Below are positions 7,449 to 11,313 of a DNA stretch of 25,060 bases, piece by piece. Numbering within the stretch: the stretch's first letter is position 1; the number at the start of each line of letters is the position of its first letter. A program made the translations under genes and the position numbers. Origin of the DNA: Candidatus Moraniibacteriota bacterium (GTDB lineage Bacteria > Patescibacteriota > Minisyncoccia > Moranbacterales > DUUL01); the NCBI GenBank assembly GCA_018399935.1, contig JAGYNP010000010.1:1-25060 (forward strand). Direction: 5' to 3'. Under the pieces are notes generated by a model. That model saw only the letters and a program-made list of their open reading frames with translations. It was not told the origin of the DNA and ran no database searches.

Positions 7449-7477
7449 TTGACAGGGTTTTTTATAAAATTTATACT
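7449..7477 (+). promoter_or_regulatory. Sigma70 promoter of the nrdR-nrdD operon
   Basis: TTGACA (7449-7454), 17 nt, TATACT (7472-7477). Confidence 0.85.
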
Positions 7478-7499: not shown

Positions 7500-7515
7500 A
7501 TACAACATATAGTGT
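7500..7515. promoter_or_regulatory. NrdR box
   Basis: ATACAACATATAGTGT matches the NrdR consensus acaCwAtATaTwGtgt at 14/16 positions; it lies between the promoter and the nrdR start. Confidence 0.75.
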
Positions 7516-8212: not shown

Positions 8213-10378
8213 ATGAAAAATCAAAAAAAGAAAAAAGATAATCAGCCAATAAAAAAGAAAAAGCAGACTAGAAAATTAATTGAAAAAATAATCAAACGTG
8301 ATGGTTCTATAGTCAATTTTGAAAAAAATAAAATTAAAGAAGCTGTTTATAAAGCATTTAGAGAGGTTGGAGAAGGAAGTTTAAAGGCAGCTGAAAAAGT
8401 TACTAAAAAAGCGGTTCAAATTTTAAATAAAAATACTAAAGCTGGATACATTCCTAATATTGAAGAAGTTCAGGATACTATTGAAAAAGTTTTAATGGTA
8501 TTAGATTTTGAAAAAACTGCTAAAGCCTATATTATTTATCGAGATAAACGTACTAAAATGAGAAGTACGGAAGAGTCTTTGGAAGATGCGGTGGATTTAG
8601 TCGATCAATATCTAGGTGAGATTGATTGGCAAGTCAAGGAGAATTCTAACATGGCTTATTCTTTGCAAGGTTTGAATAATTATATTTCCTCAATTGTTAG
8701 TGGTAAATATTGGGTGGAAAGAGTTTATCCAAAATCTATTAAAAAAGCTCATGAAGAAGGGGACTTGCATATTCATGATCTAGATAAAATAGCGGCTTAT
8801 TGTTGTGGTTGGGATCTACAAGATTTAATGACTCAGGGATTTACTGGTGTTTCAGGTAAAATTTCTTGTAAGCCAGCTAAACATTTAAGACCAGCTTTGG
8901 GTCAATTAGTAAATTTCTTTTATACGACACAGGGAGAAACGGCTGGTGCTCAGGCGGTAGCTAATTTTGATACTTTGTTGGCTCCTTTCGTAAGATATGA
9001 TGGATTGGATTATAAGGCTGTTAAACAGGCTATTCAAGAATTTGTTTTTAATTTAAATGTTCCAACTAGAGTCGGTTTTCAAACTCCTTTTACTAATATT
9101 ACTATGGATTTAAATTGTCCTAAGATGTTTAAAGATCAAAATGTGATTGTTGGTGGAAAAGCTCAAAAAGAAACTTATGGAGATTTTCAAGAGGAAATGA
9201 ATATGATTAATCAAGCTTTTGCGGAAGTTATGAGTGAAGGAGATGCAACTGGTAGAGTTTTTACTTTTCCAATTCCAACCTATAATATTACCAAGGATTT
9301 TAATTGGGATGATAAGAAATTGGACAAAGTTTGGCAAATGACTGCTAAATATGGAATTCCATATTTTGCTAATTTTGTTAATTCCGATATGGATCCAGAA
9401 GATGCTAGATCGATGTGTTGTCGTTTGAGATTAGATAATAGGGAATTGCACAAGAGAATGGGTGGTTTGTTCGGAGCAGCTCCTTTAACTGGATCAATTG
9501 GTGTGGTTACTATTAATTTACCAAGAATTGGTTATTTAGCTAAAAATAAAAAAGATTTTTTGAAGCGATTGGATAAATTAATGAAAGTAGCCAAAGAGAG
9601 TTTAGAGATTAAAAGAAAAAGTATTGAAAATTTTACTCAAGGAGGTCTTTATCCTTACTCTAAATTTTATTTAAAGGATATCTTCAAAAGAAGAGGCTCT
9701 TATTGGGGAAATCATTTTTCTACTATCGGAATAATTGGAATGAATGAATCTTTATTGAATTTAATAGGAAAAGATATTACTTCTAAAAAAGGAGTTAAAT
9801 TGGCAGAAGAAATTTTGGTGCATATAAGAGAACAAATGGTTGAATTTCAGAAAGAAACAGGTTCTTTGTACAATTTAGAAGCTACTCCAGCTGAGGGTAC
9901 TAGCTATCGATTAGCACTTAAAGATAAAAAAAGATTTCCTAAAATAATTTTTGCTAATCATGATTCCGATAAAAAGCAATCAGCTCCTTATTATACTAAT
10001 TCTTCTCAATTGCCAGTTGGTTTTTCTGAAGATGCTTATGAGGCAATGGACTTGCAAGATCAATTGCAAACTAAATATACTGGAGGCACGGTTTTTCATA
10101 CTTTTTTAGGTGAAAAAATTCAAGATATAGAAACAGTAAAATCTTTTGTGAGGAAAATAGCCAATGAATATGAAATGCCTTATTTTACTATCTCTCCAAC
10201 TTTTAGTATTTGTCCAATTCATGGTTATCTAAGTGGGGAACATAAGCAATGTCCAAAATGTTTAATTGAACAGTCTTGCGAAGTTTATTCTAGAGTAGTT
10301 GGTTATATTAGACCAGTACAACAATGGAATGTTGGCAAGACGGCAGAATTCGAAGATCGAAAAGAATTTAAAGTTTAA
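8213..10378 (+). CDS. nrdD: Anaerobic (class III) ribonucleoside-triphosphate reductase with N-terminal ATP-cone
   Basis: ATP-cone IIKRDGS.V.F...KI..A; HIHDL; YCCGW; RSMCCRL; YNLEATPAEG; YTGGTVFH; Zn site CPIH...CPKC; glycyl-radical motif YSRVVGY (Gly697). Confidence 0.98.
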   Translation: MKNQKKKKDNQPIKKKKQTRKLIEKIIKRDGSIVNFEKNKIKEAVYKAFREVGEGSLKAAEKVTKKAVQILNKNTKAGYIPNIEEVQDTIEKVLMVLDFEKTAKAYIIYRDKRTKMRSTEESLEDAVDLVDQYLGEIDWQVKENSNMAYSLQGLNNYISSIVSGKYWVERVYPKSIKKAHEEGDLHIHDLDKIAAYCCGWDLQDLMTQGFTGVSGKISCKPAKHLRPALGQLVNFFYTTQGETAGAQAVANFDTLLAPFVRYDGLDYKAVKQAIQEFVFNLNVPTRVGFQTPFTNITMDLNCPKMFKDQNVIVGGKAQKETYGDFQEEMNMINQAFAEVMSEGDATGRVFTFPIPTYNITKDFNWDDKKLDKVWQMTAKYGIPYFANFVNSDMDPEDARSMCCRLRLDNRELHKRMGGLFGAAPLTGSIGVVTINLPRIGYLAKNKKDFLKRLDKLMKVAKESLEIKRKSIENFTQGGLYPYSKFYLKDIFKRRGSYWGNHFSTIGIIGMNESLLNLIGKDITSKKGVKLAEEILVHIREQMVEFQKETGSLYNLEATPAEGTSYRLALKDKKRFPKIIFANHDSDKKQSAPYYTNSSQLPVGFSEDAYEAMDLQDQLQTKYTGGTVFHTFLGEKIQDIETVKSFVRKIANEYEMPYFTISPTFSICPIHGYLSGEHKQCPKCLIEQSCEVYSRVVGYIRPVQQWNVGKTAEFEDRKEFKV

Positions 10379-10447
10379 ACTACTGGAGGTAGTTTATAGA
10401 AAACTATAAAAGTCGAAAACTAAAAATTAAAATAAAAATTAAAATAA

Positions 10448-10496
10448 ACCCAGTTAGATAACATTTCAAGCTTCGCTTAAAATGTATCTAACGGGT
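10448..10496. other. Intercistronic hairpin between nrdD and the small glycyl-radical-domain gene
   Basis: ACCCAGTTAGATAACATTT / AAATGTATCTAACGGGT, about 17 bp with two single-base bulges. Confidence 0.7.
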
Positions 10497-10505
10497 CAAG
10501 TAAAA

Positions 10506-10748
10506 ATGAAAAAATCTATACCAAAAGGAGTAAAATGTGAAGATTGTGGGAAAGAAATAAAAGTTGGAGATGAGAATGTCGGATATTGGAAAGAAGAAAA
10601 TGTTTATAGGTGCGGAGAATGTACTCAAGCCTTTTTTAAAACGGAAGTCTATTCTAGGTCAGTTGGTTATATTCGTCCCGTCCAGCAATGGAACACTGGA
10701 AAGACAGCAGAATTTAAAGATAGAAAAATGTTTAAAGTTAGAGTATAA
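10506..10748 (+). CDS. Small stand-alone NrdD C-terminal glycyl-radical-domain protein with its own Zn ribbon (80 aa)
   Basis: CEDC-x21-CGEC, then EVYSRSVGYIRPVQQWNTGKTAEFKDRKMFKV, nearly identical in protein to the NrdD C-terminus. Start 10506 is preferred because ATG 10482 lies inside a hairpin. Confidence 0.85.
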   Translation: MKKSIPKGVKCEDCGKEIKVGDENVGYWKEENVYRCGECTQAFFKTEVYSRSVGYIRPVQQWNTGKTAEFKDRKMFKVRV

Positions 10749-10749
10749 A

Positions 10750-10850
10750 ATGGAAGTCTATTCTAGGTCAGTCGGTTATATTTATCCTGTTTAACAATGG
10801 AATATTGAAAAGTAACTGAGTTTAAAGATAGAGTAAATTTTGAGGTTTAG
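10750..10850 (+). pseudogene. Decayed third copy of the glycyl-radical motif region
   Basis: MEVYSRSVGYIYPV*QWNIEK, then a 1-nt deletion, then TEFKDRVNFEV*. Has an in-frame TAA at 10792-10794 and a frameshift near 10812. Confidence 0.8.
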
Positions 10851-10879
10851 TTAGATGGATGTTTATGAATTGAGTTTTT

Positions 10880-10913
10880 AAAACCCCGATACTTGTTTCA
10901 AGTCGGGGTTTTT
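10880..10913. terminator. Bidirectional intrinsic terminator
   Basis: AAAACCCCGA(TA)CTTG-TTT-CAAGTCGGGGTTTTT between the convergent nrd operon and the 10918 ORF. Confidence 0.88.
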
Positions 10914-10917
10914 GTGT

Positions 10918-11313
10918 CTATATTTCACAGTTAAATTTAGGTTGATTTAGAAATTTTATCACTCTTTTAGATAAGGACAATGAGAAACTTGTATAAAAAT
11001 GATCAAAAAAATTAACTTCTTGGTAAATATTTTTTATTGAAATTAAAAAAATTGTATAAAAAAGAAGAAATTCTTTCAAATCAAGATTAATTTTTCTATT
11101 TTCTTTGTCAATAACCACCAAATCAACTGAATTAAAAATTTTTTTGACTTCTTTAATTTTAATTGTTTTATTTTTTTTAATTAAATAGGGAGTAGAAAAA
11201 TTAATATCAAAAATATTATTATTAATAACAATTTTTCCAAAAAAATCTTCTTTTAATCCTATTCTATTTAAATTAATTTTAAAAAAAACTTCTTGAAATT
11301 CTGAATTTTTCAT
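10918..11313 (-). CDS. Hypothetical protein (131 aa)
   Basis: ORF with upstream AAGGA RBS-like site, ending at the terminator; no family recognised. Confidence 0.55.
   Translation of the reverse strand: MKNSEFQEVFFKINLNRIGLKEDFFGKIVINNNIFDINFSTPYLIKKNKTIKIKEVKKIFNSVDLVVIDKENRKINLDLKEFLLFYTIFLISIKNIYQEVNFFDHFYTSFSLSLSKRVIKFLNQPKFNCEI

Follow-up and report, generated by a model that had tools for sequence, protein, structure and literature searches.

Organization of the locus

The window analysed here is a 25,060-nt stretch of contig JAGYNP010000010.1 (assembly GCA_018399935.1) from a Candidatus Moraniibacteriota bacterium, and the element of interest within it is a small gene of 80 codons that follows nrdD, the gene for the class III or anaerobic ribonucleotide reductase (RNR), after a spacer of 127 nt. 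The product of this small gene repeats the C-terminal glycyl-radical domain of NrdD, and the evidence from the window and from related genomes points to a free-standing radical module that may serve as a spare part for the reductase. The features of the region are collected in Table 1.

Table 1. Features of the nrdR-nrdD region (window coordinates)
Feature	Position	Strand	Remarks
Promoter-like site TTGACA-17-TATACT	7449-7477	+	Upstream of nrdR; near-consensus; consensus match only
NrdR-box-like palindrome ATACAACATATAGTGT	7500-7515	+	Between promoter-like site and nrdR; 2 mismatches
nrdR, 148 aa	7550-7996	+	NrdR zinc ribbon and ATP-cone
nrdD, class III RNR, 721 aa	8213-10378	+	ATP-cone and full NRDD profile
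Built-in glycyl-radical domain of NrdD	10211-10375	+	Zn site C667-x2-H670...C680-x2-C683, then Gly loop
Short AT-rich hairpin	10376-10396	+	Directly 3' of the nrdD stop; no T-run, off the terminator consensus
Palindromic repeat element (hairpin)	10446-10497	+	Just 5' of the small gene; one of several genome copies
Weak promoter-like site TAGATA-17-TAAAAT	10455-10483	+	Overlaps the palindromic repeat element, 5' of the small gene
Small gene, 80-aa stand-alone NrdD-type glycyl-radical module	10506-10748	+	ORF, Pfam NRDD match, orthologues
Predicted zinc ribbon of the small protein, C11-x2-C14-x21-C36-x2-C39	10536-10622	+	Four Cys invariant in 21 orthologues
Gly loop and tail of the small protein, EVYSRSVG54YIRPVQQWNTGK...	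10644-10739	+	Gly codon 10665-10667
Third, decayed tandem copy of the tail	10746-10852	+	Repeat search; two in-frame stops, 1-nt indel

A second NrdD-type glycyl-radical domain

The NrdD of the window is intact: it covers the NRDD profile from position 1 to 562 of 562, scores 1075 bits against NF006126 and ends in a complete Gly loop (EVYSRVVG697YIRPV, Gly codon at 10301-10303). As the sequence-only reading of this DNA maintained, the small open reading frame (ORF) is thus not simply one half of a split gene, and the window holds no two-gene (split) class III RNR, an arrangement found instead at 24 of 57 related loci. NrdD is also the sole RNR found in the window genome, which is 74% complete, and a NrdG2-type activase is encoded on another contig of that genome (TIGR02495, 1.2e-63).

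Translation of the small gene is best placed at the ATG at 10506, which matches the conserved start of the orthologues (MTKSIPK...), an alternative ATG at 10482 not being conserved. Residues 47-78 of the protein are identical to the last 32 residues of NrdD at 28 of 32 positions, including the radical glycine (G54 versus G697), which bears out the near-exact repeat that first drew attention to the locus. At the nucleotide level, the repeat finder gave 79% identity between 10280-10375 and 10644-10739, and over 30 codons the two tails show 11.7 synonymous and 8.3 non-synonymous differences. The proportion of synonymous sites that differ (pS) is 0.62 and that of non-synonymous sites (pN) 0.117, so that the claim that the copies differ mainly at synonymous positions holds true as a rate. 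The small protein matches Pfam NRDD (PF13597; E 1.5e-11, 44.1 bits, where the cut-off is 26.2), but solely over profile positions 511-562 of 562, and it falls far below the cut-offs of the full-length NrdD equivalogs (38 bits versus 326 for TIGR02487 and 36 versus 548 for NF006126). It is therefore a domain-only protein, and its source label of 'anaerobic ribonucleoside-triphosphate reductase' is misleading.

Three marks of an NrdD glycyl-radical domain are present in the small protein: the match to the C-terminus of NRDD, the Gly loop and a predicted four-Cys zinc site. The radical glycine lies in an R-x-x-G-Y loop (SRSVG54YIRP) 14 residues past C39, and in both NrdD and the small protein it stands 13-14 residues past the second Cys pair. 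The sequence-only reading had assigned the small protein a zinc ribbon of its own, different from that of NrdD. The CxxC-x21-CxxC ribbon is indeed there, but it can be aligned to the CPIH...CPKC site of NrdD, of whose C-terminal module it is possibly a diverged copy: in profile-profile alignment, CPKC is matched by the second CxxC of the module and, when the alignment is global, CPIH by the first, given an insert of 11 residues. Weak Pfam matches of the ribbon (DUF6510, DUF7479) lay below their own cut-offs and were disregarded.

An assembly artefact was ruled out for the nrdD/small-gene pair by independent contigs as well as by orthologues. A contig from another study covers the junction between the end of nrdD and the small gene (10312-10535) with 2 differences, and a contig from a salt-lake run covers the start of the small gene (10454-10607) with 0 differences. 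Among RNA runs, none containing this stretch was found.

Family size, conservation and selection

A profile search of 1.84 billion cluster representatives returned 4345 matches to the small module at E<=1e-3, of which 842 reached E<=1e-10. Lengths among the best 150 run from 42 to 159 aa; all of these matches contain the Gly motif and 107 of them the CxxC...CxxC ribbon. In their source annotations, members of the family appear as 'anaerobic ribonucleoside-triphosphate reductase' or 'hypothetical protein', and neither Pfam nor NCBIfam has a model devoted to them. Closest to the window are seven database proteins of 78-93 aa, 67-71% identical to the small protein over its full length, which share the gene order priA-ligB-nrdR-nrdD-small-rnc-smc. 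An alignment of 21 same-order orthologues shows no variation in the four Cys or in the pattern E-x-YSR-x-VGYIRP-xx-QW-xx-GK-xx-E-xx-DR, and the Gly, Tyr and Arg of the loop recur in all 150 best family matches.

Selection was assessed in four genomes of the window genus which, like the window, combine an intact NrdD with the small gene (the dual state). The zinc-ribbon half of the small gene, for which there is no close paralogous copy that could act as a conversion donor, has a pN/pS of 0.21-0.42 (Fisher p <= 3e-4), and the own tail of NrdD has a pN/pS of 0.05-0.17, with synonymous sites near saturation (pS 0.5-0.9). The low ratios in both the ribbon half and the NrdD tail indicate that both copies are maintained in dual-state genomes. 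Together with the orthologues and their invariant Cys and Gly loop, these comparisons of sequence confirm the 80-aa ORF as a real gene under selection, as had been claimed.

In several families of the order, at nine of the loci examined, a C-x(1-3)-C motif closes the small module at its extreme C-terminus (ACASC, TCSC, ACSSC, ICC or GCC), the cognate NrdD having a Lys-rich end. By analogy with the tails of class I and II RNRs, this ending could be a redox-active tail. The small protein of the window does not have it.

Natural truncations of NrdD in related genomes

The most informative evidence on what the module can do comes from a survey of the 3' end of nrdD and its downstream ORF at 57 loci (55 genomes of the same order and two metagenome contigs), in which the named relatives belong to Candidatus Moranbacteria/Moraniibacteriota, within the Parcubacteria group (Patescibacteria). 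An intact NrdD stands alone at 18 of these loci and is accompanied by a zinc-ribbon module, as in the window, at 15; a truncated NrdD is followed by a zinc-ribbon module at 19 and by a shorter Gly-loop ORF without the ribbon at the remaining 5. The truncated proteins stop soon after the CPKC zinc site and before the radical glycine. All 24 of them adjoin a small Gly-loop ORF, and none of the 18 loci lacking such an ORF has a truncated NrdD. Relics of the tail persist at the truncated ends (CEVYSQIVS-stop, CEIYSRVL-stop, KVFSQV), and since they retain the start of what was lost, the truncated NrdDs must descend from intact genes. Within the window genus alone, where three of seven loci have no NrdD tail, the truncations differ from one another (...CEIYSRVL-stop in one, ...CEVYS(E/Q)IVS-stop in two), and the truncated-plus-module state takes 7 changes to explain on the tree of NrdD bodies, with well-supported branches forcing no fewer than 3.

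The bodies of truncated NrdDs are as conserved as those of intact ones, and no class I or II RNR was found in ten genomes of the truncated type that are 90-100% complete. A NrdG2-type activase is present in 54 of 61 genomes, and the gene order nrdD-small-nrdG occurs in five families. That truncated NrdD is always accompanied by a small Gly-loop ORF, and that ten near-complete genomes of this type showed no further RNR, argues that the small protein supplies the radical loop in trans, and from these sequence patterns we consider it very probable that the module is able to act on NrdD in this way. Beyond the order, an even sample of the phylum (301 genomes) contained 90 genomes with a Gly-loop match, in about 55 of which the loop lies in a small frame of 43-123 aa.

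A second kind of split was observed at five loci, each in a different genome. Here NrdD is truncated after the zinc site and is followed by a 65-71-aa ORF without zinc ribbon and with a divergent loop (EVWTRVMGY(F/H)RPV).

Coexistence of intact NrdD and the module

The possibility, raised by the sequence-only reading, that homologues of the small protein might occur only beside truncated NrdD is not borne out. Six families of the order are represented among the 15 dual-state loci mentioned above, other orders show the dual state too, and so do 13 named metagenome-assembled genomes (MAGs) from Moranbacteria, Minisyncoccales and Paceibacterota. In three genomes the two genes are unlinked: a complete Saccharibacteria chromosome carries the intact NrdD and the module 45 kb apart, and in a Smithellaceae MAG, as in one from Parcubacteria, the two lie on separate contigs.

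Distant members of the family that do not lie beside nrdD were seen at three pairs of loci (L073/L074, L075/L076 and L077/L078). Two distant members reside in phage-like arrays of small overlapping genes together with RusA, an RNase H-like protein and a large polyvalent protein. Another overlaps the 3' end of a Fur-family regulator gene, and a link to metal or peroxide stress is possible on that account.

Origin of the module and exchange between tails

A duplicated 3' end of nrdD is the probable source of the small gene, and the alignment of the two zinc sites suggests that the module is, plausibly, an old duplicate of the whole C-terminal domain of NrdD whose ribbon has since diverged. The small gene and nrdD are still exchanging tail sequence. 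Two tails from one genome resemble each other more than do tails across genomes, both at non-synonymous (0.057 versus 0.143) and at synonymous sites (0.57 versus 0.88; permutation p < 1e-4 each), and their likeness at synonymous sites too points to gene conversion between tails.

Downstream of the small gene lies a third copy of the tail, 84% identical to that of the small gene over 67 nt and visibly decayed. The 108-109-nt tail repeat was missed by Tandem Repeats Finder and detected by a direct-repeat search; the third copy was found in no other locus among those examined, and no independent contig bridges its junction with the small gene (10743-10782), where the assembly may be at fault. Such a decayed copy fits a recombination-prone locus.

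The small protein of the window ends in ...FKVRV, versus ...FKV in most orthologues of the genus. The two extra codons and the stop of the small gene (10739-10755) coincide with the junction of the third copy (TAAAATGGAAGTC versus TAAAACGGAAGTC), and tandem duplication thus seems to have remodelled the 3' end of the gene.

Predicted complex

The association of the NrdD body (residues 120-689) with the small protein was modelled, yielding a score of 0.85 in three runs against 0.00 for the best control; this mark was attained by 51 of 78 solved complexes and by 2 of 108 mismatched pairs. The modelled interface comprises residues 41, 43-57 (Gly54 included) and 63-80 of the small protein and the barrel strands of NrdD, including the region of the zinc site. 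The zinc ribbon of the small protein falls outside the confident interface. The predicted complex is to be read as a sign of likeness, not as proof of binding.

A proposed spare radical carrier for class III ribonucleotide reductase

Exposure to oxygen destroys glycyl-radical enzymes, the damage falling on the radical glycine, and no remedy is known other than GrcA/YfiD for pyruvate formate-lyase (PFL). Against this background, we propose that the 80-aa ORF encodes a free-standing glycyl-radical domain of class III RNR and that, in the window genome, it acts as a spare part or back-up for an intact NrdD, a proposal to which we assign a probability of roughly 0.55. The NrdG2-type activase, encoded elsewhere in the genome, would place the radical on Gly54, and the loop of the module would then dock in the NrdD barrel in place of the built-in tail and pass the radical to the active-site cysteine. 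That this second step can take place in trans is borne out indirectly by the natural truncations in relatives, and the model of the window pair depicts it. As NrdD keeps its own loop, the module of the window would be a second, cheap and replaceable radical carrier, and it could re-arm NrdD bodies whose tail has been cleaved by oxygen or was never activated, much as GrcA/YfiD does for PFL. The sequence-only reading had anticipated such a role. Its premise that the small protein can stand in for the built-in tail agrees with the 24 truncated loci, but its emphasis on repair needs tempering: the family acts as the obligate radical subunit of a two-gene NrdD at least as often as it acts as a back-up, so that service as a spare part is one of two uses evident in genomes and, for the window, a presumed one. 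In a more ambitious version of the proposal, to which we give a little less than even odds, class III RNR in these bacteria would be a modular radical system of two components. The activase would act by preference on the small zinc-ribbon protein, which would bring the radical to NrdD bodies as a diffusible, disposable cofactor, with the built-in tail as the back-up and with phages bringing their own module.

Several observations weigh against a back-up function in the window. The dual state was seen in just 2 of the 90 genomes of the phylum sample with a Gly-loop match, and in two genera sister genomes have an intact NrdD without the module (G011 versus G019, G059 versus G035), which means that the module is dispensable in some lineages. 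Gene conversion between tails implies that part of their conservation does not stem from selection. The small protein of the window is the most divergent of its genus at otherwise conserved positions of the tail (Ser at Gly-2, Thr in WNTGK), and both this divergence and the decayed third copy next to it can be read as a flux of duplication and decay. The model of the complex may simply replay the solved fold of single-chain NrdD, since the piece taken away from NrdD and the tail of the small protein share 87% identity.

According to a different explanation, the module can serve NrdD in trans but brings no benefit of its own in the window genome, the dual state being a passing stage between fused and two-gene NrdD. 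The module would have been created when the 3' end of nrdD was duplicated in tandem, and either the small gene or the NrdD tail would be lost later on. Both outcomes recur in close relatives (14 state changes on the tree, and the three tail-less loci of the window genus), gene conversion holds the tails alike, the third copy shows duplication and decay to be ongoing, and the window copy has unusual substitutions. Yet both copies are under purifying selection despite saturated synonymous sites, including the ribbon half that conversion could hardly maintain; the dual state is spread over six families of the order and other orders; and a transient tandem duplicate does not explain dual-state genes that are unlinked. 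We regard this explanation as rather unlikely, though still to be reckoned with. A remnant devoid of function, that is, a partial nrdD duplicate decaying like the truly decayed copy that adjoins it, is far harder to sustain and we deem it very improbable: the frame is open and its start conserved, identity among orthologues is about 70% and pN is much lower than pS, the four ribbon Cys are invariant and the family is large, so that the selection tests already contradict it.

The sequence-only reading had also offered an activase decoy or a regulator as an alternative, and this notion gained no support. The small protein would here compete for NrdG, or plug the NrdD barrel without catalysis, tuning or silencing the enzyme. 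It does possess the elements that an activase could recognise (the zinc site and the Gly loop), and its predicted binding to the NrdD body would suit a plug, but the radical glycine and the whole loop are invariant and, in the 24 related loci where it carries the sole Gly loop, often without another RNR, the protein must support catalysis. We therefore consider a decoy or regulator improbable. A cofactor for some other glycyl-radical enzyme was ruled out, given that no PFL-like or Gly_radical (PF01228) match was found in the window genome at its 74% completeness; the small protein has no such match either.

Relation to known systems

The proposed role has its nearest functional parallel in the GrcA/YfiD system, where the activase radicalises a small protein that then replaces the damaged loop of PFL (PMC13450708). 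The same review, of June 2026, states that among glycyl-radical enzymes spare parts have been identified for formate-lyases alone, the existence of others being 'yet to be determined' (PMC13450708). No description of an NrdD spare part or of a split class III RNR was found in the literature searched, which covered few subscription journals, and the stand-alone NrdD-type modules are apparently an undescribed family. The 80-residue NrdD module of the window is so far the strongest candidate for a spare part beyond PFL.

Like GrcA/YfiD of E. coli and Y06I of phage T4, the module is a free copy of the C-terminal glycyl-radical domain of its parent enzyme. GrcA/YfiD coexists with an intact parent, as the module does in the window, at 14 other loci of the order and, unlinked, in three further genomes, and some members of the module family resemble GrcA/YfiD and Y06I also in being unlinked to the parent gene or in lying in phage-like arrays. 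The parents, however, are different enzymes (PFL and NrdD), and so are the domains of origin: GrcA/YfiD belongs to Gly_radical (PF01228), whereas the module matches Pfam NRDD and is thus an analogue, not a member. Moreover, YfiD has a disordered N-terminus where the module has a four-Cys zinc ribbon. To our knowledge, GrcA is never the only radical loop of a genome, as the module is in many.

With canonical single-chain class III RNRs (phage T4, E. coli, T. maritima) the window genome shares the body, the ATP-cone, the C-terminal zinc site, the Gly loop and the NrdG2-type activase, but it differs from them in having a second glycyl-radical domain as a separate protein, and the relatives without a built-in domain possess a two-polypeptide enzyme. 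The one split RNR for which the literature searches yielded a description is a class II enzyme. In NrdJa/NrdJb of Pseudomonas aeruginosa, the zinc-finger-containing C-terminal part is a polypeptide of its own (PMC9669993), which serves there in reduction and oligomerisation and not in radical chemistry. We know of no redundant fused-plus-free state described for NrdJa/NrdJb.

The locus and its relatives thus provide a concrete spare-part candidate for anaerobic RNR, no other route to DNA precursors having been found in these genomes. Should the small protein prove to be a radical carrier, it would be the first spare-part or radical-carrier protein for a glycyl-radical enzyme other than PFL, and after exposure to oxygen only some 80 residues would have to be remade, which suggests a cheap way for strict anaerobes with tiny genomes to survive oxygen pulses. 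There is also a lesson for annotation: the label 'anaerobic ribonucleoside-triphosphate reductase' misleads when attached to such small ORFs, and truncated NrdDs may pass for pseudogenes.

Upstream signals and neighbouring elements

The search for NrdR boxes gave a single match, located 5' of nrdR, with 2 mismatches (versus 0.41 matches expected by chance), and the same search found no box before the small gene. The promoter-like site and the NrdR-box-like palindrome upstream of nrdR suggest that nrdR-nrdD, possibly with the small gene, forms an autoregulated unit, and no terminator-like site was found between nrdD and the small gene. Promoter-like sites barely exceed the shuffled background (24 versus 16).

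About 50 nt in length, the palindromic element 5' of the small gene forms a strong hairpin on folding (z -6.2), and the 641-kb genome contains 14 or more copies of it. The copies often lie just 5' of start codons, sometimes in tandem, and they are distributed over several contigs (C18, C20, C21, C24, C40 and others). The stretch is very deep among contigs from an unrelated sediment run, and the element resembles an intergenic repeat of the repetitive extragenic palindromic (REP) or miniature inverted-repeat transposable element (MITE) kind. The sole Rfam match, to RsmY at 10828-10912, was sub-threshold (18 bits versus 57) and was set aside as chance.

Convergent to the small gene lies a 131-aa ORF (10918-11313, minus strand) without Pfam match. 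A similar ORF (ending ...KPKFDCKI...) occupies the same place in one relative, and ORFs of 130-145 aa are found there in three others, so that this neighbour is a conserved one.

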